Source: a virus
Taxonomy: Duplodnaviria > Caudoviricetes
Virus record (IMG/VR): IMGVR_UViG_3300042292_000091
Coordinates: 1 to 59,827 of that record
DNA: 59,827 bases
Direction: 5' to 3' (one strand)
Shown piece by piece: positions 21,029 to 59,827 of the stretch; within the stretch, counting starts at the first letter, position 1; every line of letters begins with the position of its first letter. The position numbers and the translations under genes were made by a program. Below the pieces are notes generated by a model. It ran no database searches and was not told the DNA's origin. It worked only from the letters and a program-made list of their open reading frames with translations.

Positions 21029-22941
21029 GCCACCTCAAATGCTTCTTTTCGATTCGGGCCTTTGTAGTGCAGAACCTTGGGCGATCTGCCTTCCACAAAC
21101 TCGGGGAGACAGCCGTAATCTTCTTCACTCAAATATCCGACATTAAATTCTTCTGCCATTACAGCAAGTCGCTTCATGGCCTCCTGATCGCCGTACCACT
21201 TCCGATACTTCGGATCGATCTCCTCAAGCATCTCGTACATCTTTACCCACGGAGTAAAGTCTTTAGTCACGGTGAAACAAGCGATGATGGGATAGACCTC
21301 GTCAATCTTCTTCCCTGCATATTCATCAAACCGGATGCCGCGCTGTTCGGTAATAAAATCATAGTCTCGCTGAAAGAACCGGCGACAGAACAACACATCC
21401 TTGTCTCCCAGAAGTTCTTTAGCATCAAGTCTCTGCTGCACCAGCATATCAGTGTCGATGTACATAGCCGGGTGTGGGCAGCGGAGTCGAGCAAACGCTT
21501 TGAGCCTTGCTGTCATCAGTTCATTACGGTCGCACTCAATCTCAAACCGATGGGTCACGCCCTCGATGTGCGGAGTTGTCTTGTCCGTACACATCACAAT
21601 CTCTGCGTTAGGGTTCGTTGCCAAGATAGAGCCAACCGTTTTGCGGGGGAAATAAATGTCCTGCCCCACGTGGAAGAACACAAACGTTGTCTTGGGCGGC
21701 TCGATCTCTTCGATACCTAACTTCGCATTACGTAGTTTTCTAACATCATGAGCAACACGCAGAATCTGCCTTGTCCACGGCGTTGCCATGCTGTCACGTG
21801 GAAAAATCTTGACTGACGGATACCACAGGCTCTGTTGACCGCGCTTATTTCCCCAGTACCACAACTTGTTTGCATCAAACAGTAAAACTGGGATGCCCAT
21901 AGCCCCCGCGAAATGTACCGTCGCACTACTGACAGACACCACCACATCACACAAACTCATCAGTGCTGTGAGTCCGTTTAAATTTAAAAAGTTGTCAATA
22001 TCCTCGGCACAGATCAACTCCACACCATGTTTCTCTTTCAACTCTTGAATAGCCGGTTGAACCTGTCCGTACTGAAGATTGATGAACTTGACGTTCTCCA
22101 AATTAAAAACAGGTAATAGTTCATTCAGCCCCATGCTTTTATGAGGGCCAATCGCGGGAGCCATGCTTCCCCAAGAAACTCCTACAACAAAGTCTTCGGG
22201 CTTGATGCCGAATCGTTTCCGCAGTTCGTTCGCCTTTTCTTCGTCGGGCTTTAAAAAATTAACCGCTCGGTGTCGTTCAAAATCTTCTAGCCCATTGATG
22301 AAGTGACTGCCCAAACTAGCAATCGGAATGTGCGAGTCGTGATCCTCGTCCATGACTCTTGTGTTACCCGGCTCGAAATTGATCTCAGGCATAGAGCGTT
22401 GGTAAATCGGCAGCAAACGGAAATCAATCAGCATCGTGACTTTATCAACGTGCTTCGCCAACTCCCGCAGCAAAGATGAGTAAATAACCACATCACCCAC
22501 GCCTTGCTCAGGCCACACCAGCACAGACTTATAACCTTTGCCGGGCTTCCACCGTGGCTTGTTGGTTTTAAGTTTGGGAGTCGTAAACTTTACAGACTGC
22601 CATCGTCGCTCATACAACGGCCAACAATCTTTAAATCTGTTTTGCTGCAAATAGAACAGACCTAGTACCCATTTAATATCCGCGCTGTTGACAGGATCCA
22701 AATAGTCAGCGGCTCTGAAATCGGCTTCGGCTTTATCCCACCGTCGCAGTTCCCAATTACAACGTCCTCGCTGTAAGTAGAAAAACGCAAGAGGACCGGT
22801 CACGTTTGTCAACGCATTAAATACTTCGTAGCATTTCTTAAAGTCGGTGTCACCGTAAGTCGATATGGCTTGATTGCCGACATCAACAAGTTCTTTGATC
22901 AGCCGATGCGATTCCTTAACTAATTGTTCGTGATCCTTCAC
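21025..22941 (-). CDS. TPR + GT-B (GT9-like) + GT-A-like fusion protein
   Basis: N-terminal TPR-like helices; EQGVGD, INLQYG, DVVVSVSSATVHFAGAMG; C-terminal YIDTD (DxD), WYGDQ, HYKG. Confidence 0.75.
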   Translation of the reverse strand: MKDHEQLVKESHRLIKELVDVGNQAISTYGDTDFKKCYEVFNALTNVTGPLAFFYLQRGRCNWELRRWDKAEADFRAADYLDPVNSADIKWVLGLFYLQQNRFKDCWPLYERRWQSVKFTTPKLKTNKPRWKPGKGYKSVLVWPEQGVGDVVIYSSLLRELAKHVDKVTMLIDFRLLPIYQRSMPEINFEPGNTRVMDEDHDSHIPIASLGSHFINGLEDFERHRAVNFLKPDEEKANELRKRFGIKPEDFVVGVSWGSMAPAIGPHKSMGLNELLPVFNLENVKFINLQYGQVQPAIQELKEKHGVELICAEDIDNFLNLNGLTALMSLCDVVVSVSSATVHFAGAMGIPVLLFDANKLWYWGNKRGQQSLWYPSVKIFPRDSMATPWTRQILRVAHDVRKLRNAKLGIEEIEPPKTTFVFFHVGQDIYFPRKTVGSILATNPNAEIVMCTDKTTPHIEGVTHRFEIECDRNELMTARLKAFARLRCPHPAMYIDTDMLVQQRLDAKELLGDKDVLFCRRFFQRDYDFITEQRGIRFDEYAGKKIDEVYPIIACFTVTKDFTPWVKMYEMLEEIDPKYRKWYGDQEAMKRLAVMAEEFNVGYLSEEDYGCLPEFVEGRSPKVLHYKGPNRKEAFEVA

Positions 22942-23054
22942 CAGTAATCCCTCCCACTACGCTTCGCTCCCCATGCCGGGGGTGGCACGTGTGCCCATTC
23001 TTTCTTACGGAACTCATCCGCACGTTTAAAGAAACCTAATAGCCACTTGATCAC
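22938..23054 (-). CDS. Small hypothetical protein (38 aa, not in ORF track)
   Basis: MIKWLLGFFKRADEFRKKEWAHVPPPAWGAKRSGRDYW fills the gap with GTGA overlaps at both ends. Confidence 0.5.
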   Translation of the reverse strand: MIKWLLGFFKRADEFRKKEWAHVPPPAWGAKRSGRDYW

Positions 23055-23692
23055 ACAGCCTCCTGCGCTACAAAGTGCAGCATGGTGAACGGGAGAGATA
23101 CCGCCGTCTTCCTGCCTTCACGTGGGTAGATCAGTACACGTGTGCCAGATTCCAACCGCATGGCATTGACCGTACCCTTCTCAATGCCTTCAAAGTCATC
23201 AAAGACAAAGATGGTGTGGTCATGGATGATGCTCGGCAGGTACTGGAAATCTTCTTCTTGAACCCTGCCATCAAAGTAGATCAGATCAATGCCAATCTTC
23301 TTGTCGGCCAAGTTCTTGAACATCTGTGTCGATGACTGCTTGGGGTATTGGAAAATGCCCGTGTCGCTTTGACTTATCTGTATCTGATTGGATACATCGC
23401 AGGTATATATCTTTGCTGACGGCATGGCCTCACGCATGGTTCGGGTAGAGACCCCGATGAACGTGCCCACTTCGGCAATAGCCTTCGGCTTAAAGAATGC
23501 CACCAATTTATAAAGTTCTACCGCATCGTCGTACGGAACTGAACCAGTGTTGTAGTCTGCGTCAACTCGCAGCCTCTGTTGTTCTTCAATAATCTTTTCG
23601 ATGGTCTCGTACGGGAAGTCATTTACCTTCTCGTCCATGATACCCCAGAAGATATTGCTAAATCGTTGTCGTCCAATCTGTACCGGATTCAT
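23051..23692 (-). CDS. Class I SAM-dependent methyltransferase
   Basis: IAEVGTFIGVST motif I, IYTCD, DLIYFDG, FVFDD. Confidence 0.8.
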   Translation of the reverse strand: MNPVQIGRQRFSNIFWGIMDEKVNDFPYETIEKIIEEQQRLRVDADYNTGSVPYDDAVELYKLVAFFKPKAIAEVGTFIGVSTRTMREAMPSAKIYTCDVSNQIQISQSDTGIFQYPKQSSTQMFKNLADKKIGIDLIYFDGRVQEEDFQYLPSIIHDHTIFVFDDFEGIEKGTVNAMRLESGTRVLIYPREGRKTAVSLPFTMLHFVAQEAV

Positions 23693-23928
23693 TTTTTAAC
23701 CCCTGTTTTAAGTGCTGAGTCTTCTCGTTCTTTAAGCATTGCATCTGCAATGACGTAAGACATCTTAGAGACTTCTTCGGGACGTAGTAAGACACCGTGG
23801 GATATGAGATATCCCTGCATGGCTTTCGCAGCCATGTAGTCTCGCAGTGTCATGCCGTGACCCCACCACTTTAGACGTTCGCCTTCCAACTGTGGGAAAG
23901 CAAACTCATTCTTAGGCTTACCACTCAC
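23689..23928 (-). CDS. Conserved small phage protein
   Basis: AFP...GMTLRDYMAAKAMQG...SYVIADAMLKER, a common phage motif; GAGGTAG SD upstream. Confidence 0.75.
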   Translation of the reverse strand: MSGKPKNEFAFPQLEGERLKWWGHGMTLRDYMAAKAMQGYLISHGVLLRPEEVSKMSYVIADAMLKEREDSALKTGVKK

Positions 23929-23946
23929 TTTGCTACCTCAATAAAA

Positions 23947-24533
23947 ACCTTACCAAACCAGACCGTGCCCCGCCTTACCCGACCATGCCCGACCCCACCA
24001 CGCCACGCCGTACCCCACCTTGCCAGACCTAGCCTAACCCGACCATGCCTCGCTACGCCGTACCAAACCTCACCAAACCCGACCAGACCCTACCCGACCC
24101 GACCTGACCCTACCAAACCCCGCCGCGCCGCGCCTTGCCGGACCTGACCCGACCACAAATAAAAATTTCTTGCCAGAGAAACCAAACCCTACCAAGCCCC
24201 ACCTTACCGCGCCCGACCCCGCCCCGCAGGACCACACCAGATAAAAAATTTCTCGCCAGAGAAACCAAACCGAACCTCACCGCGCCCCACCATGCCCCAC
24301 CTAACCTCACCACACCCGACCGAGCCACGCCGAGCCTGACCGCGCCACGCCTCATCAAATAAAAATTTCTCGCCAGAGAAACCGTACCCTACCGAGCCAT
24401 ACCCTACCCGACACGACCTAGCCACGCCGCGCCATACCGTGCCTGACCAAACCTGACCTCACCAAACCCGACCTCACCGGGGCGCACCGTGCCAGACCCT
24501 ACCCAACCTCGCCAGACCGCGCCAGACCTGATC
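23947..24533 (-). ncRNA. Array of phased GGY-NN pentamer tracts with hairpin separators (putative guide RNAs, VIPR-like)
   Basis: Plus strand RCC every 5 nt: tracts 23947-24154 (42 units), 24181-24238 (12), 24264-24351 (18), 24381-24528 (30); 4 of 102 triplets deviate; begins right after the stop of the RAMP-like gene. Confidence 0.8.
24157..24383 (-). repeat. Three copies of separator GGTTTCTCTGGCRAGAAATTTTT(T)AT
   Basis: Plus-strand copies at about 24157-24183, 24241-24266 and 24357-24383; hairpin TTTCTC-TGGC-GAGAAA plus T tract. Confidence 0.9.
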
Positions 24534-24538
24534 TCAAA

Positions 24539-25114
24539 TTAAACTTCCTTAAAACTCGTCACTCTAAAAGTCCCAAAGGGACCACGTTTCTCTGGCCTAA
24601 AATCACCGATACCCATGCTCTCACCCGCTTCATTCAGCAGACGATGTGCGTCCTCAGACGAGAGCATTTGATCATTCAGAATTAAACGGAACTTCGCGCC
24701 CCATTTATCGAATCGGGGGCGATAACGCATCACCCGACCCTTGGTTGCAGGGATCGTGACCGGACGGCCATCAACCTCAAAGTTCCCTGCCGGTTTACCG
24801 TCTTCACCCAAGATGGTGATGGTGTCTGTGTCAATACGCACAGCAGACGGAACAACAAATTTTAGAGTCTTACGCGAACCGCGCATTTTGTGGTTCACGC
24901 CCGCGTTCGCCATCGTTGCAGGGATAGAGAAAGCATTAAAGTAGTATGTTCCATCCTGCGCGATGTAAGCATTCTTCGTCGCCTCGTCTCGCGGATTCAT
25001 ACTATCGACCATCACACGACGGGTCGCCTTGCCTTGCTCTGCCTGTTCCGCAAACTTGTGGATCAAGAGCGGAGTGTTACCACGGATTTCAACTTCAATC
25101 GTCTTCATGTTCAT
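24539..25114 (-). CDS. Stand-alone RAMP/Cas7-like RNA-binding protein (191 aa; Vipr-like)
   Basis: N-terminal strand IEVEIRGNTPLLIH, YYFNAFSIPATM, RYRPRFDKWGAKFRL, C-terminal Gly-rich loop GIGDFRPEKRGPFGTFRV; adjacent to pentamer array. Confidence 0.7.
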   Translation of the reverse strand: MNMKTIEVEIRGNTPLLIHKFAEQAEQGKATRRVMVDSMNPRDEATKNAYIAQDGTYYFNAFSIPATMANAGVNHKMRGSRKTLKFVVPSAVRIDTDTITILGEDGKPAGNFEVDGRPVTIPATKGRVMRYRPRFDKWGAKFRLILNDQMLSSEDAHRLLNEAGESMGIGDFRPEKRGPFGTFRVTSFKEV

Positions 25115-25123
25115 TACCTCTGT

Positions 25124-25519
25124 TTAAGCGCGTTCGCGGATTGCGATTTCGCGTGTCAAATAAAACTGTGCTTTCTTCAAGTCCTCGACCGGATCGGCTC
25201 CGACCTTCTTACCGGCGCGGCTCACATACTTCACCACGTTAAAAAGGTAAGCGTTCTCAGTCAGACCTTTTGCTTCTGCGTAGTCTAGAAAGTCTACGCC
25301 CCCGACTGTGTAGTGCGGCGGCTTGTTCACAAGATCAGGCTTGTTTTCTAGTACGTTGAGTGCGGCCTTTGTTTCTCGCACCGCCTCCATAATCTTTGAT
25401 GACTTATTCTTCGACCGCACGGTATACACGTACTGCGGCTTTACCTTTGCGATCTTTGCTATTTCCTTGACCGACTTCCCCGACTGCAACAACTTTAAAA
25501 TCTGCCTTGACTTCGACAT
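25124..25519 (-). CDS. HTH + DUF3310-like protein
   Basis: GKSVKEIAKIAKVKPQYVY HTH; VNKPPHY...FNVVKYVSRAGKK...EDLKKAQFYL. Confidence 0.8.
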   Translation of the reverse strand: MSKSRQILKLLQSGKSVKEIAKIAKVKPQYVYTVRSKNKSSKIMEAVRETKAALNVLENKPDLVNKPPHYTVGGVDFLDYAEAKGLTENAYLFNVVKYVSRAGKKVGADPVEDLKKAQFYLTREIAIRERA

Positions 25520-25799
25520 AACTTAATATCTCCTTGCGTAGGTTCTCTACGTTTGTCTCATCTATCACTACTGCGATGCCACCGGCTTTACGTATGTCAT
25601 CGTGATGCTTCAGTTGAAGCGCGGTGGGCTTTCCACCGTTTGCTTTACACTCTATACCATAAAACAACCCGGCGATACAAATAATAAAATCGGGTGCGCC
25701 AGAAGAAGAGAAGCCAGTTCCTATCGGCATCGTGTAGTACGCGCCGAGTTCATTGAGAATCTCCTTCACTCGTTTCTTTACTCGTCCTTCCGGTGTCAT
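25404..25799 (-). CDS. VRR-NUC nuclease
   Basis: MTPEGRVK, GAPDFI, GIECKANGGKPTALQ, GGIAVVID. Confidence 0.85.
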   Translation of the reverse strand: MTPEGRVKKRVKEILNELGAYYTMPIGTGFSSSGAPDFIICIAGLFYGIECKANGGKPTALQLKHHDDIRKAGGIAVVIDETNVENLRKEILSYVEVKADFKVVAVGEVGQGNSKDRKGKAAVRVYRAVEE

Positions 25800-26154
25800 G
25801 CTCTACCTTCCTATAAATGCCATTAGTTAATGGCATCCCTCTAAGTTCATTTAAAAGTTTTTCGCTGATGACAAACTGATACCACGTGTCATCAAGCCTC
25901 CAACCTACATCCTCTAATACTTCGGGGATGTCTACGACCTCAAACGCTTTACTGTCTATTGAATGAATCAACACCAACTTCTCTTTGATCTCGGTTGGCA
26001 AGTCCTTGAGCGGGAATTGCCTGTTATACTTTTTATCTACGTAAATAACGAAATGGTCGGACGGCGTTCTCTTCACGTAAACAACCCAATGCCCCGGCCA
26101 GATAGCATCTTTAACCGGAGCCAAGGATGTTGGATCGCCCTTCTCCTCGCGCAT
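25750..26154 (-). CDS. Hypothetical protein
   Basis: 134-aa ORF in operon. Confidence 0.55.
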   Translation of the reverse strand: MREEKGDPTSLAPVKDAIWPGHWVVYVKRTPSDHFVIYVDKKYNRQFPLKDLPTEIKEKLVLIHSIDSKAFEVVDIPEVLEDVGWRLDDTWYQFVISEKLLNELRGMPLTNGIYRKVEHDTGRTSKETSEGDSQ

Positions 26155-26157
26155 ACA

Positions 26158-27207
26158 TCACCGGGGAAGAAGTAAGCATTGGTTCATATCTACCTCGTCG
26201 GTGCTTGATGAGTACGCACCCATCTCCTGCCAGAACGTCGAGATTGTTACTTCGGGAATTATCTGAGCCGATGCTCGGTGTGTCTTCAACATCATTAAAG
26301 AGTATTCCAACTGACGCTGATACTCTTCGGGAACCTTACTCAGTGACTTGTACCATTTAAAAGGTACAGTCTCCTTGACGTAGTTAAACCGATTACCGAA
26401 CGGCAACTCGTCGTCGGCAATGAACTTGTCCATCGCTTCAATCATAGGCTCGGGGCTAATCGCGCCCAGTAGTACGCCGCCGTTAAAGTTGGGGCAATAC
26501 ATCCACTTCTCACCGTCAAAGAAGTCCTTAGACTTGTCGATAGATTCCCTAAATTTATTGCGTTTAGTCGTGTAGTTAGAGTAATGCGTGTCAAATTCTT
26601 GACGCATGGACGACGGCATCTCCAACATGGTCACTTCATTCGCTGCCAACTTAGCCAGAAATGTTTGCAGATTCTCAGTCAATTTGTTCATCGGAAACTG
26701 TGGCTGCGAACTGATGCCGTGTCCGTAGTTTCTGTCAATAAGATCATCAACGATGTCACGCAACTTTGTGGACAAACCGTTTTGTGCGTTACCAATACTT
26801 CTAATCAACGAGTCTGCGGCATCATGCGACGATTCTGGTTTGAGTTTACTCTGCAAATACCGGGGGTTCGCTGTACCTATTTGATGGCGGGTAGCACCGA
26901 CATTGAACGCACCCCAAGGGGTATATAAGTTTAGCGTACCCCCGTCTCCGACTTTGCCGGTAATACTAAATTTGCAGATTTTCATACCAAGAGAAGAGAC
27001 CATCTCTATTGCATAGACTTGCCCGGTCTGGAATGTTTCCACGTGACCGATAAATGCCTTGCCACCCGAATAGTTGTAGACACAAGCAACGCTGCCAAAC
27101 AACGGGCTTGTAGTAACTGCTTGAACTAGATCGTGAGGCAATGGGTTGTACTTCTCCTTGAAAAACAAATCACCCACATTGAACTTAACCTTCTCCTTCT
27201 TCGCCAT
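26158..27207 (-). CDS. Hypothetical protein (349 aa)
   Basis: Long ORF with GAGGTAG SD. Confidence 0.7.
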   Translation of the reverse strand: MAKKEKVKFNVGDLFFKEKYNPLPHDLVQAVTTSPLFGSVACVYNYSGGKAFIGHVETFQTGQVYAIEMVSSLGMKICKFSITGKVGDGGTLNLYTPWGAFNVGATRHQIGTANPRYLQSKLKPESSHDAADSLIRSIGNAQNGLSTKLRDIVDDLIDRNYGHGISSQPQFPMNKLTENLQTFLAKLAANEVTMLEMPSSMRQEFDTHYSNYTTKRNKFRESIDKSKDFFDGEKWMYCPNFNGGVLLGAISPEPMIEAMDKFIADDELPFGNRFNYVKETVPFKWYKSLSKVPEEYQRQLEYSLMMLKTHRASAQIIPEVTISTFWQEMGAYSSSTDEVDMNQCLLLPR

Positions 27208-27356: not shown

Positions 27357-28550
27357 TTACGCTTTCATCACCACACGCTTGTTACCGTTCGGCGGCACGA
27401 ATGACTCGCGGCCACCCTCTTTGATCACCCAGATCGACGGGATCGGGGTCTGCCATGTCACCGGGTCTTCTACGTAACCGTCCGTGAACACGATCATGCA
27501 GTCTGCGTTAATACGATTCTTAACGATGTAGTCACTGACACAGCCCGCACGAGTACCGCCACCACCCAAAGGCTTGAGCATCCGATTGATCTCTGAGTAG
27601 TTACCCTCAAAGACTTGCTCACCATGCACCTCGGTGTCCCACCACAACACACGGATACGCTCGGGCGGCAAGGTATCGCACAGTTCTTGGATACGTGATG
27701 CGACCTTGGCAATGTCCTTGTTGTTGATCGACCCTGACGTATCGACCGCCAGAATGACCTCACCGATTGTTTCGTTGATCGTGCTAGGCAGATAGTGTCC
27801 ATCGGCTAAACGATTCTTATTGAACCGCCGCCATGTGAACTCATCCGACCCGCGCACATTGGCAGTCCAGAAGTCCTGCAACACCTCGCGCCAATCAATC
27901 TCGGGCTTCATCAAATCTTGAATGGCTCGGGGAATGTTCGCCCCAAACCGACCGGCCAACGTACCACCTTGGTGTATGGCTTCATCAACCTTGCTACCCA
28001 ATTTCTCCAAATCACCCGGCTCCATGCCTTCGACTAGATCATCTCCATGATCATCGAACGATTCTTGTGGACGACCTCCGCCGCCTCCCTGCTCTTGCTC
28101 TTGTTTAAGATAGTCATACACACGACGGACAGACCAATCGTGGAACATCGGATCGTAGTAACAACCCGCCGGTAACTTGCACAACTTCTTGTCTTGAATG
28201 TTTGTGATGATGTCGTTCACCACATAGTCCATCGCAATGTTGGCTAGTTTCTTGTCTTTCTTCATCAAGTCCTTGTGACGGGGAATGTGCTTGAGCATCA
28301 CGTGCAGAGTCTCATGCAGCACAACACCGGCAATCTCTTCGTCAGTCAGTGTCTCCAAAAACTTTCTACCGTATCGTTTGTTCAAGCCATCGGTGTACGC
28401 TGTCGGACACTGCCGCTCGTCATCAACAAGGGAAGTCTCACCCATTAGGATGACACCGCCGTATAAGCAAGTCTCAGGATGGCGAATTAGTTTAATGTTC
28501 GCCTTCTTCAACCGCGTTTCTAGATCGACTTCACGCACGACTGCGTTCAT
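27357..28550 (-). CDS. Metallopeptidase (HExxH) + VWA domain protein (DUF2201-like)
   Basis: TAYTDG, VLHETLH, DTSGS MIDAS, GGGGT, FTDGY. Confidence 0.85.
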   Translation of the reverse strand: MNAVVREVDLETRLKKANIKLIRHPETCLYGGVILMGETSLVDDERQCPTAYTDGLNKRYGRKFLETLTDEEIAGVVLHETLHVMLKHIPRHKDLMKKDKKLANIAMDYVVNDIITNIQDKKLCKLPAGCYYDPMFHDWSVRRVYDYLKQEQEQGGGGGRPQESFDDHGDDLVEGMEPGDLEKLGSKVDEAIHQGGTLAGRFGANIPRAIQDLMKPEIDWREVLQDFWTANVRGSDEFTWRRFNKNRLADGHYLPSTINETIGEVILAVDTSGSINNKDIAKVASRIQELCDTLPPERIRVLWWDTEVHGEQVFEGNYSEINRMLKPLGGGGTRAGCVSDYIVKNRINADCMIVFTDGYVEDPVTWQTPIPSIWVIKEGGRESFVPPNGNKRVVMKA

Positions 28551-28741
28551 AACTCCACCTCACTTTGTTTGACTATGATCTTGTACCCAAGTTCCTTGAT
28601 CATGAACAATTCCCGCCGACTAAATGTTCGTCGATGGGACAGCCTCGCCAGAATCGTTGACTTAGGACACTCTGGATAAAACCTTTCTGTGCCATAGACC
28701 TCACGCTTGGTGATGACTATCTGCATTTGATCGTCATTCAT
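28547..28741 (-). CDS. Small hypothetical protein
   Basis: EVYGTERFYPEC motif; ATGA coupling. Confidence 0.6.
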   Translation of the reverse strand: MNDDQMQIVITKREVYGTERFYPECPKSTILARLSHRRTFSRRELFMIKELGYKIIVKQSEVEL

Positions 28742-28752
28742 TAGTCTCTACC

Positions 28753-29835
28753 TCAGATTAAAAGTTCAATGTTCTTCATGCCCCATGCTCGTAACTCATC
28801 GTTGTTACGTGCCAACTTCGCGGTGCGCTTGGACTCAAACACCATCGAGTTGAAGCAAGCCTGTATTTCCTCAGACTTCAACCGCTTCACAAACTTCATG
28901 AACGATGTGAGTTCATCCTGCGTGTCGATGGTATCGACCGCATTGAACATGGCGTGGAACAGGACTGCCGGGTTCGTCGGTATCGCAATGTTCTCGGGGT
29001 CAGCCAGAATGTCAGCGACCTTGAGCCACTCCTTCTCCATCTTCATAAACGCATCGACCGACTCGGCAAACGCACCACCACAAAGCCCGGCCAGTGCTGC
29101 CTTCGTCACGTATTGACCTAACTTGCCAGAGTTGTTCACAACCTCATTAGCACCGACCAACGACCGGGGCGTAACGAATGATGTAATGGGCTTGGCCGGG
29201 TCAAAGATGTACGGGTTCTGCTCCTGCCCACCATCAAGATACGACGCGAGACACGACGGATTCATGGCAACCCATGTACGAATGATGCGGGAGATACCAT
29301 TATCAGTTGCCCACAGATTCCAACGCCGGGCATCGGGCTTACGCACATTGATCACACACAGACGATTCAACACGTGCGCCGACAGCGTATCGCCAACACC
29401 GTCAGAGGAATTATTACCCGTTGCGAACACGATAGATCCCGCTGGCAGTTTCACATCACCGACCGTTCGCTCAAGCATCAACCGGGTGAAGATAACTTGC
29501 AGCAACTTGTTCGCCTTGCTCACCTCGTCAAGCATGATGATCTTGGGCTTCGGGCTGTCCAACTTGAACAACTCCGACACGTAAGACTCCAACGATTTAG
29601 TCTGATGGTTCGGTATCCGCATCACTACGTCGGACACATCCAACACCGGGCAGTCTGCATAGATCGGGTCATACTCGTTACCCAAAATCTGTTTAACCAT
29701 AGTCAACACCGTTGACTTGCCGATACCCGGCTCACCGCGCAGCATCACCGTTCGATGATGACCAATCGTTGCGATCAAGTTCGGGATATCACTCAGTTCA
29801 ACAGGGTTGTTGAAGTTGATTGTCTTGTTAGCCAT
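28753..29835 (-). CDS. AAA+ ATPase (MoxR-like)
   Basis: GEPGIGKS Walker A, MLDE Walker B, ATGN sensor, NR finger, TPRS; beside VWA gene. Confidence 0.85.
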   Translation of the reverse strand: MANKTINFNNPVELSDIPNLIATIGHHRTVMLRGEPGIGKSTVLTMVKQILGNEYDPIYADCPVLDVSDVVMRIPNHQTKSLESYVSELFKLDSPKPKIIMLDEVSKANKLLQVIFTRLMLERTVGDVKLPAGSIVFATGNNSSDGVGDTLSAHVLNRLCVINVRKPDARRWNLWATDNGISRIIRTWVAMNPSCLASYLDGGQEQNPYIFDPAKPITSFVTPRSLVGANEVVNNSGKLGQYVTKAALAGLCGGAFAESVDAFMKMEKEWLKVADILADPENIAIPTNPAVLFHAMFNAVDTIDTQDELTSFMKFVKRLKSEEIQACFNSMVFESKRTAKLARNNDELRAWGMKNIELLI

Positions 29836-57966: not shown

Positions 57967-59827
57967 ATGAACCAATATCCTGCGGCGGGACTCGCGTCCC
58001 TTGTAGCCGCTCAAGGCCGTAACGGGGATTCCGCCCTCGTTCACATGACTCCCGAAGAGGTTCGCAGCCTCCAAGCCATCGCCCGTGCACAGGGTGTGGA
58101 ACTGCCGGTCAATCCGGTAACAGGGGTCCTTGAAGCGTCGGCCCTTAGTAGATTTTTAAGTTCTATTGGAAGGGGCATTGCTAACGTCGGTCGCACGATA
58201 ATCCAAAACCCTCAGACCACCGCATTGATTGCTGGCACCGCCTACGGCGCTATCAAGGGCGATCTACAAAAGGGTCTTGAGGCGGGCATGAAAGCCTACG
58301 CCGGGACTAAGTTGCTCGGTGGTATTACGAGCGCAGTACAGCAAGGTAGGAGAACCCCCGGTATCGCGGGTCCTGCTGGATACAGAGAGGCTTCTCGTGG
58401 AGCAGATGACTTTGGCGAAGTTGCACCGGGTTTGATGGATGTTAAGCCTACGGTTGAAGCTCCGTTAGGTAGAAGTCCTGCCAGTGGTGGCGGGCTTGAT
58501 GCGCTCTTACAACGAATACTAGGCGGCGGTCAGTCGGGTACTACGCAACAAGGGCAACCCTCGCAAGGACAACAGGGACAGCAGGGTATTTTCGGTCGAG
58601 GCACTGACCCGATCATGCAGGCGATTGCGCTTTATGCAATGAATCGTGCTGAACAAAAGGCGACGGGACAACGACCGGGTATTCCAACTCCGCAGCCTCA
58701 ACAGTACCGCAACGTCCAGTTTAATTACGGACGGGTCAATCCAAGGTTCCGTGAGCCGGGGCAACCGTACTTTATTGACGGCGGCTATACCGATCAGGGC
58801 TACACCACGCAGTTCCCTGATTACAGTAGGCCACCACCTACGGGGCAAGCGCCACAAGCGCCTAATCAACCGCCACAGACTCCTCCACGGAACCAACCTC
58901 CTCCTTACGCGCAGGATGATCGTCGCTACGGGCTGCAAATGGCTTCGGGCGGCGTCGCCTACGCGGATGGCGGAGTTTCTGAAACGGCGAGCAACTTGGA
59001 GCAAGACGAGCAAAGGAGGCGCGAAGAATACTTCCGTAACCTCCGCCCTTTCGCTCCCGCCCTGACTGATCAGTATCGCACCGATGCAACTCGCATCGGG
59101 TCAGTTCAGGGCGTTGATCCTTATAACCGCGATCCGCTTACCCGCCTGACGCAGCCCGCACCCAGAGGTGTAGGCACGGAAGGTATTGCCTCACTCCAAC
59201 CGTACGATGAATCGCTCGCTGAGTGGTATCGTTCGCTATTAGTCCCCCCGATTGGCCGTGCGCCGCTTGAGACGGGAGACTATTTCACGACTACGCCGAA
59301 GCGTGGTGCGACTAACTATGGCCCGGTAATTAATTACCCGCCCCCGCCACCTCCGCCAATAGTTGTCCCGCCGCCCCCGCCACCTCCGCCGCTCACCTGC
59401 CCAAATGGTGAGCCTTTTGACTTAATTCGTTTGGCACAGGGACTTGACCCGTGCGGCATTGGCGGCTGCGGCGCTAACGAATATTTTGACGTCAGCACGA
59501 AGCAGTGCGAGTGTATGCCCGGCACTACTCGTGGTGCCGATGGCGTTTGCGGTAAAGGACCTCCGGGACCTCCGGGACCTCCGGGACCTCCGGGACCTCC
59601 GGGACCTCCGGGACCTCCGGGACCTCCGGGGCCGCCTCAACCTCCGGGACCTCCGGGACCTCCGGGACCTCCGGGACCTCCGGGACCTCCGGGACCTCCG
59701 GGGCCGCCTCAACCTCCGGGACCTCCGGGGCCGCCTCAACCTCCGGGACCTCCGGGACCTCCGGGACCTCCGGGGCCGCCTCAACCTCCGGGACCTCCGG
59801 GACCTCCGGGACCGCCGGTGCCTCCGG
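57967..59827 (+). CDS. Internal virion protein with poly-Pro, Cys-rich and collagen-like regions, 3'-truncated (not in ORF track)
   Basis: Hand-translated, no stop from ATG 57967 to window end; [16 protein letters not shown]...[11 protein letters not shown]-terminal motif. Confidence 0.8.
59557..59827 (+). repeat. 9-bp tandem repeat GGACCTCCG encoding (Gly-Pro-Pro)n
   Basis: About 30 triplets, mostly GPP with QPP interruptions; runs off window end. Confidence 0.95.

Follow-up and report, generated by a model that had tools for sequence, protein, structure and literature searches.

A lake-phage locus that is probably a VIPR system, with long mosaic GGYNN tracts and reduced U-rich tails

We analyzed a 59,827-base stretch of DNA (hereafter the window, meaning that whole stretch) from a 94%-complete virus genome that occurs in lake-water metagenomes. 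An array of GGYNN pentanucleotides on its minus strand is probably part of a VIPR system carried by the phage; the three elements that part its repeat tracts would be the constant 3′ tails of guide RNAs (vrRNAs), a reading made from sequence comparison. Taken together with the published VIPR, the identity of the adjacent gene product as Vipr, indicated by a profile match and by conserved GGY contacts, points to the separators as tails that delimit vrRNAs.

According to the available portion of the discovery preprint, VIPR was first described in 2026 as a CRISPR-like RNA-guided silencing system, closely studied in two clades, built from Vipr, a small stand-alone RAMP protein, and from vrRNAs with alternating GGY/NN motifs and a constant 3′ tail (bioRxiv 10.64898/2026.04.26.720920). 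Published work on the SUSP1 system, as far as its available text goes, assigns one Vipr protomer to each GGYNN unit (bioRxiv 10.64898/2026.04.26.720920, 10.64898/2026.04.26.720927); Vipr hides GGY and presents NN, the NN bases read double-stranded DNA while passing over one base for each unit, and in the published structure a pseudoknot caps the Vipr filament at its 3′ end.

Layout of the array

The strict (GGYNN)n array occupies positions 23945-24528 on the minus strand and holds 102 units; its four tracts have 30, 18, 12 and 42, the lengths given in an earlier note on this DNA, which our recount on the minus strand reproduced. Tracts start on this strand at 24528, 24351, 24238 and 24154. GGY recurs every 5 nt, or after 10 nt at degenerate units, which number four (GCCCC, TGTCG, TGCGG and AGCGA). 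A pattern of six consecutive GGYNN units matched 61 times in the 59,827-base window, always on the minus strand at 23947-24528, and in 0 of 100 shuffles. The features of the array are as follows.

24529..24538, minus strand: 10-nt leader from the vipr stop codon to the first unit, too short for a promoter
24379..24528, minus strand: tract 1, 30 GGYNN units; units 10 and 24 are degenerate, and units 1-9 and 21-28 are also found in other arrays
24359..24383, minus strand: separator (putative tail) 1, GG-UUUCUC-UGGC-GAGAAA-U5-AU
24262..24351, minus strand: tract 2, 18 units; units 1-10 are the same as units 1-10 of tract 3 in locus L003
24241..24266, minus strand: separator (putative tail) 2, as the first but with U6
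24179..24238, minus strand: tract 3, 12 units; unit 3 is degenerate
24159..24183, minus strand: separator (putative tail) 3, the G>A variant UGGCAAGAAA, in which the closing C-G pair is lost
23945..24154, minus strand: tract 4, 42 units; unit 21 is degenerate
23929..23949, minus strand: distal end, GGUUUUUAUU, which has no hairpin and continues into GAGGU, the next gene's ribosome-binding site

Read in RNA sense from the minus strand, tracts 1-3 each close with GGUUUCUC-UGGC-GAGAAA-U5-6-AU. The corresponding DNA element, TTTCTCTGGCGAGAAAT(5-6)AT, is 23-24 nt long and occupies 24381-24359, 24264-24241 and 24181-24159; a G>A change turns the last of these into TGGCAAGAAA. The GG of the final repeat unit directly precedes each separator. 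When the 21-nt separator core was searched with ≤3 mismatches, we obtained three matches in the 59,827-base window and none in 100 shuffles. The 5-nt register is broken at the separators, where the GG-to-GG distances are 32, 28 and 29 nt, and a gap of 2-9 nt lies between a tail and the next tract. Tract 4 ends in GGTTTTTATT, which has no inverted repeat, followed by GAGGT and then by a GTG start at 23928. All four tracts end in GGUUU and a U-run, and UUUUUAU is common to the four ends. The earlier description of three separators, one of them with a G>A change, and of a distal tract without the hairpin was thus correct in every detail.

Across 534 units from the window and six related arrays, the first two positions are G in 96% and 99% of units and the third is a pyrimidine in 100% (U in 68%, C in 32%), followed by two variable positions. 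At the first variable position of the same seven arrays we observed G in 34% of units versus C in 18%. The excess of G would fit guides in the sense orientation of target codons, where the wobble base is the one skipped; avoidance of C is an alternative.

The Vipr protein and neighboring genes

Three minus-strand genes border the array or each other.

25124..25519, minus strand: 131-aa HTH + DUF3310 gene, directly upstream of vipr
24539..25114, minus strand: vipr, encoding a 191-aa stand-alone RAMP/Cas7-like protein (family profile, hhalign, AF2 model and Foldseek)
23689..23928, minus strand: ORF of 79 aa that follows the array immediately; phrog_2201, with no assigned function, and not consistently paired with vipr

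The 191-aa gene product is a stand-alone protein homologous to the published Vipr. Our family profile A1 (42 members) matched PDB chain 36pp_D, “SUSP1 Vipr protein,” with an E-value of 6.6e-22 over 186 of 192 positions, and hhalign aligned the window Vipr with SUSP1 Vipr over 175 columns with 99.3% probability; the two sequences are only 24% identical. The protein belongs to phrog_4652 and to no Pfam family. Its AF2 model has a pLDDT of 94.1, and the predicted fold is that of RAMP proteins, with Csm3 chains as the best Foldseek matches (E 5e-7) among 115 chains at E≤0.001. Residues H19, R132, D171, F172 and R173 of the window protein align with the SUSP1 GGY contacts H17, R138, D177, W178 and R179, so that the residues holding G1, G2 and Y3 have counterparts here. 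R132 and R173 are invariant in the 42 family members, and the tryptophan W178 of SUSP1 is phenylalanine in the window. At E≤0.001 the Vipr family comprises 2,923 representative clusters. Scanning viral contigs for ten GGYNN units yielded at least 137 stretches. Flanks were fetched for 80 of these, and 62 encode a Vipr homolog. The array itself, with its tandem GGY+NN pentanucleotides, lies beside vipr on the same strand, its first unit 10 nt past the stop codon of that gene.

TRAP-like ring binding, G-quadruplex beads, a plus-strand Rho rut site and primase sites had been considered for the array and were dropped on the match to Vipr, as was a translated pentapeptide repeat, which has stops in all frames.

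The HTH + DUF3310 gene is kept in the phage clade and in locus L049, and it is a possible accessory (vap-like) candidate. The 79-aa ORF occurs in 16 loci and is missing from several close relatives. No cas genes were found among the ten neighboring ORFs scanned. A few kilobases upstream of the VIPR locus, at 27357-29835 on the minus strand, lie a DUF2201 metallopeptidase/VWA-like gene and an AAA ATPase gene (phrog_1314 and phrog_1297). At the far end of the window (59557-59827), a 9-nt tandem repeat, GGACCTCCG, is present in ~30 copies and runs off the window end; judged by its sequence, it looks like a collagen-like Gly-X-Y coding repeat.

In a related phage, viral-contig locus L049 (1940-3660) has the same flanks as the window, namely a nuclease-like gene, an HTH+DUF3310 gene (66% identical) and a methyltransferase-like gene (74% identical). 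Its Vipr is very different (62 bits to the family profile), and six tracts of 8-10 units lie upstream of its vipr gene. It appears that the complete VIPR cassette has been exchanged here while its genomic position stayed the same.

Comparison with published VIPR and CRISPR systems

The closest published counterpart is the type II VIPR of Escherichia phage SUSP1 (bioRxiv 10.64898/2026.04.26.720920, 10.64898/2026.04.26.720927), which, in the text available from these preprints, is likewise phage encoded and has a RAMP-type Vipr of ~190 aa with GGY contacts at the same positions. Both systems have GGYNN repeats beside vipr on the same strand and a constant element after each tract. Several features differ. 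The SUSP1 vrRNAs have ~11-12 units by our count, and the tracts of the window have 12-42; the available text of the discovery preprint gives 9-16 units for published vrRNAs, with guides of <100 nt (bioRxiv 10.64898/2026.04.26.720920). The SUSP1 tail is ~40 nt long and contains interleaved GTGG/CCAC and GGTAG/CTACC pairings (the published pseudoknot), and each SUSP1 vrRNA has its own leader of ~40 nt or more, whereas the window tail is ~24 nt long, consists of a 6-bp A-U-rich stem and a U-run, and is followed within 2-9 nt by the next tract. Moreover, the last tract of the window keeps only the GGUUUUUAUU end without a hairpin, and the window is without a recognizable vap1. A constant 3′ element is present on three of the four tracts, in a form unlike the published pseudoknot tail, and the window array does not fit type II as found in the SUSP1 and P. 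fulva clades, with 9-16 units and a ~40-nt pseudoknot tail.

Other published VIPR arrays (staggered with 1-nt overlaps, hammerhead-interspersed, or with a single vrRNA) resemble the window array, in the available descriptions, in having variable punctuation between GGYNN tracts. The window tracts hold one register throughout, and hence there is no 1-nt stagger. Arrays of the staggered type with GGCAAGGCAGG junctions were met in our pattern scan, for example at L020 and L074. The hammerhead-interspersed arrays, as described in the available text, differ in that the window array contains no hammerhead or other Rfam family: the whole window gave 0 Rfam matches at gathering score, and the array gave only two sub-threshold chance matches. 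No ribozymes were found in 20 other array loci. In the available part of a fourth VIPR preprint, only 10-unit repeats are mentioned, for 21 clusters of non-canonical VIPR arrays.

Type III CRISPR effectors of the Csm3/Cas7 kind share with Vipr the predicted protein fold, one protomer per fixed RNA step and a constant handle that delimits the guide. Their step is 6 nt, compared with 5 nt here, and there are no cas genes at the window locus; the VIPR target, in the available published text, is double-stranded DNA read with gaps. Because every VIPR unit carries its own constant GGY, the array has no repeat-spacer units, unlike CRISPR. With a period of 5 nt, it lacks the ~25-40-nt direct repeats, spacers and cas genes of a CRISPR array.

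The window locus is thus a system of the published kind, in a variant with long mosaic tracts and a reduced tail. Tracts of 8-46 units, tails of ~24 nt and mosaics of 6-11-unit modules, presented below, go beyond the published description as far as its available text extends, and the architecture may already be catalogued in the published seven-type VIPR classification.

Tails in related arrays

We collected related arrays from 13 viral contigs (Vipr 91-98% identical to that of the window) and from 18 metagenome stretches found by a search with the tail core; the resulting 17 arrays, of which 16 differ from one another, contain 57 tracts, 53 of them distinct. The tail-core search matched this clade only, in eight viral-contig stretches and 18 metagenome-contig stretches. 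Tail matches in the 17 arrays number 42 and always lie between tracts. The proposal in the earlier note that the separators divide the array into discrete units is borne out by these arrays, every one of which has a constant element between its tracts.

The 42 tails comprise 30 of the main form, four of the window-type G>A form (in the window, L163, L172 and L176), one with another G>A change and seven of a second type, type B, with the sequence GGYUUUUAGGG(G/U)G(C/G)AAAGAAU4-6. Both types stand side by side in L001, L160 and L165, and their presence in single arrays suggests, at the level of sequence, that one Vipr works with both. All but one of the 57 tracts end in GG[UC]UU. The last tract is without a hairpin in 15 of the 16 arrays with a complete 3′ end, and the absence is thus a conserved trait; in those arrays the last tract ends in GGYUUUU(U) and is followed by a ribosome-binding site, and the gene after it varies among phages.

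A search with a 10-sequence alignment led to more distant Vipr relatives in MAGs, and the arrays of six of these, at 44-55% identity, were read; scanning the genome collection with the single protein had given no relative. Short tails follow the tracts in five of the six (such as GGUUUCAA..UUUUC, GGUUUCAAUUUUCAAGUUUUC or GGAACCAUUUUC), and no inverted repeat was seen in them on reading of the unfolded sequences. The sixth, L192, has no short tail of this kind. Of the six, four retain the GGUUUC onset and five retain at least one U-run.

Other separators were also seen. At L014 (3066-3560), beside a close Vipr relative (257 bits), the tracts are parted by structured elements of 56-63 nt that end in GCUUUUUCAGG and have no Rfam match. 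Tails in several unrelated clades close with U5-6 and then CAGG.

Folding of the tails and transcription termination

The main form of the separator, folded with its flanks and the G-U pairs that these add, has a free energy of -6.5 to -7.8 kcal/mol, with z-scores of -0.5 to -1.2, no better than shuffles; in the G>A copy with flanks this fold is lost. The stem-loop alone reaches -4.1 kcal/mol with two G-C pairs, its two G>A variants reach -0.9 and -0.5 kcal/mol, and all three type B tail cores reach 0.0 kcal/mol. Covariation was assessed on only six distinct tail cores: one of the six pairs changes on both sides (from C-G to U-A), in four of the six cores the closing pair does not form, and 83% of cells over the six cores are paired, compared with 72-76% at a partner offset of 1-3 columns. 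Because a non-folding tail type is used in the same arrays and distant relatives have short tails, the sequences suggest that the essential part is not the hairpin, which would be a weak addition specific to the lineage.

These values bear on whether the elements are chiefly Rho-independent terminators, which would generate nested transcripts with a common 5′ end, such that termination sets guide identity. Like intrinsic terminators, the elements combine a stem-loop with a subsequent U-run (an inverted repeat and then U5-6) on the transcribed strand, and the flanking G-U pairs bring the fold to the energies given above. Their stem is far weaker, however, and they lie inside an operon that has none at its end. 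Our terminator scan of 22900-26300, in which ≥3 G-C pairs were demanded, called five sites, none at the separators; apart from the U-run, the stable G+C-rich stem-loop of an intrinsic terminator is missing. The modest z-scores and the loss of folding in the G>A and type B tails also argue against termination. Three further tracts and downstream genes follow the first element, and neither the array nor the DNA immediately before it has a promoter-like site. The likeliest place for a terminator, the array's end, is without one in 15 of 16 arrays. The word “terminator” appears nowhere in the available portions of the discovery, cryo-EM and satellite VIPR preprints, and “hairpin” appears once across those of the discovery and satellite preprints. 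We consider termination as the chief role of the elements unlikely. Among the roles suggested in the earlier note, that of guide delimiter or cap agrees with the position of the tail in published VIPR, whereas that of leaky terminator is weakened by the poor stem, the lack of a scan call and the position within an operon, and is doubtful even with the inverted repeat and U-run in its favor.

Shared modules within long tracts

Among 49 distinct uncut tracts of relatives, lengths range from 8 to 46 units, with a median of 23. Comparison of NN letters alone between tracts identified 18 runs of 6-11 units that are common to tracts at differing positions; shuffled data gave 0-2 such runs in 20 trials. 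For example, tract 3 of L003 consists of units 1-10 of window tract 2 joined to units 28-37 of window tract 4, and units 21-31, 28-37 and 36-42 of window tract 4 recur in differing tracts of other arrays. These shared modules imply crossovers in register inside tracts and an evolutionary unit smaller than the tail-delimited tract, and their differing positions fit poorly with one tract being one guide. Tentatively, and at less than even confidence, we propose that the tail-delimited tract is not the targeting unit: long tracts may be composites of 6-11-unit modules held on one Vipr filament, with new specificities arising by in-register recombination among the GGY scaffolds of tracts and phages. 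A structured tail would then not be required for loading, given that the last tract is without one.

The same arrays allow a second alternative for the separators to be weighed, namely that they have no role at the RNA level and are repeated DNA serving only as crossover points for the exchange of guide cassettes. Identical 23-nt repeats do flank variable tracts, and tract number (2-5 per array) and content vary among phages whose Vipr proteins are 91-98% identical. The crossovers that can be traced, however, lie within tracts and in register rather than at separators (the 18 shared modules); the elements have strand-specific features, with the U-run 3′ of the purine arm; and the terminal GGUUU is also found on the distal tract, which has no repeat partner. 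We regard this explanation as very improbable.

Long uninterrupted tracts were observed elsewhere. L029 (2951-3660) has a GGYNN tract of 142 units beside a Vipr homolog, and L072, L131, L133, L134 and L138 have tracts of 50-60 units, also uninterrupted and beside a Vipr homolog; tracts far beyond 16 units are thus not confined to this clade. On another viral contig (L021, 3503-4918), six tRNA genes lie between two GGYNN arrays.

Tract lengths and multiples of six

The multiple-of-six rule that the earlier note drew from the four window tracts did not extend to relatives: seven of the 49 distinct uncut tracts are multiples of 6, against 8.2 expected, and no residue class modulo 6 is enriched (chi-square p 0.33). 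When the constant terminal GGUUU unit, which overlaps the separator, is excluded, the window lengths become 29, 17, 11 and 41; since this unit can be assigned to the tail, the property depends on the counting rule. We infer that the four window lengths are multiples of 6 by coincidence. That tract lengths correspond to whole turns of a six-subunit Vipr helix, with separators marking whole-turn filaments, is barely credible: the window lengths and the six-subunit periodicity of the binary (RNA-only) filament in the available published text would agree with it, but the counts in relatives, the shift by one when GGUUU belongs to the tail, and the five subunits per turn given for the DNA-bound filament in that text all go against it. 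The rule of six offers no usable annotation signature.

Searches for targets and transcripts

The published target criterion is ≥80% NN match under the one-base-skip rule. Scanning 603,889 bases under this rule with the four full-length tracts gave best NN matches of 34/60, 23/36, 17/24 and 41/84, no better than shuffled guides, and scanning the same bases with 10-unit windows of the four tracts gave no excess over shuffled guides. Comparison of the 57 clade tracts with the window and five related phage records (228 kb) yielded 10 windows at ≥17/20, versus 12 for shuffled guides. A blastn search against the phage GenBank collection returned only a 55-nt chance match.

No RNA runs carrying window positions 23650-25150 were found; four runs were examined, and they gave no RNA contig there. 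One DNA run contains this stretch in full and may be where it came from. Two wastewater runs (labeled “RNA?” and probably DNA) contain ~200-nt pieces, including a 206-nt contig, of a relative 90-95% identical to window positions 24472-24652. The match covers the 3′ end of vipr, and the first tract then continues with different NNRCC units. This match indicates a related VIPR phage outside lakes, on the basis of a single 206-nt contig.

Proposed working and implications

We propose that vipr and the array would be carried on one transcript, because no promoter-like site lies in or directly before the array, the gaps of 2-9 nt after the tails leave no room for promoters, same-strand genes follow, and the last tract directly adjoins the following gene's ribosome-binding site. 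The tails would stop Vipr polymerization by breaking the register, such that each tract would form its own filament. The U-rich single-stranded part (UUUUUAU) could be a site of RNA cleavage or occasional termination that frees separate vrRNAs. If the tail were needed for loading or capping, the last tract, which has no full tail, would be unexplained. With tracts reaching 42-46 units, well beyond the published 9-16, filaments may behave differently from those described.

The protein chemistry appears to be the same as in published VIPR, here with much longer repeat tracts in a clade of lake phages. In this clade the tail is reduced to U-rich sequence, at times with a weak stem, and the last guide runs into the next ribosome-binding site. 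The clade therefore bears on the purpose of the tail, which may be to stop the filament or release the RNA rather than to aid loading. It also bears on how long a Vipr filament can be: the longest tracts, up to 210-230 nt, would read ~126-138 bp of DNA. Finally, it bears on how a guide repertoire may change without an acquisition machine, by in-register recombination that moves modules between tracts. If the long tracts are indeed composites of modules, this would amount to a Cas1-free reshuffling of guides, and the separators would only insulate neighboring filaments.
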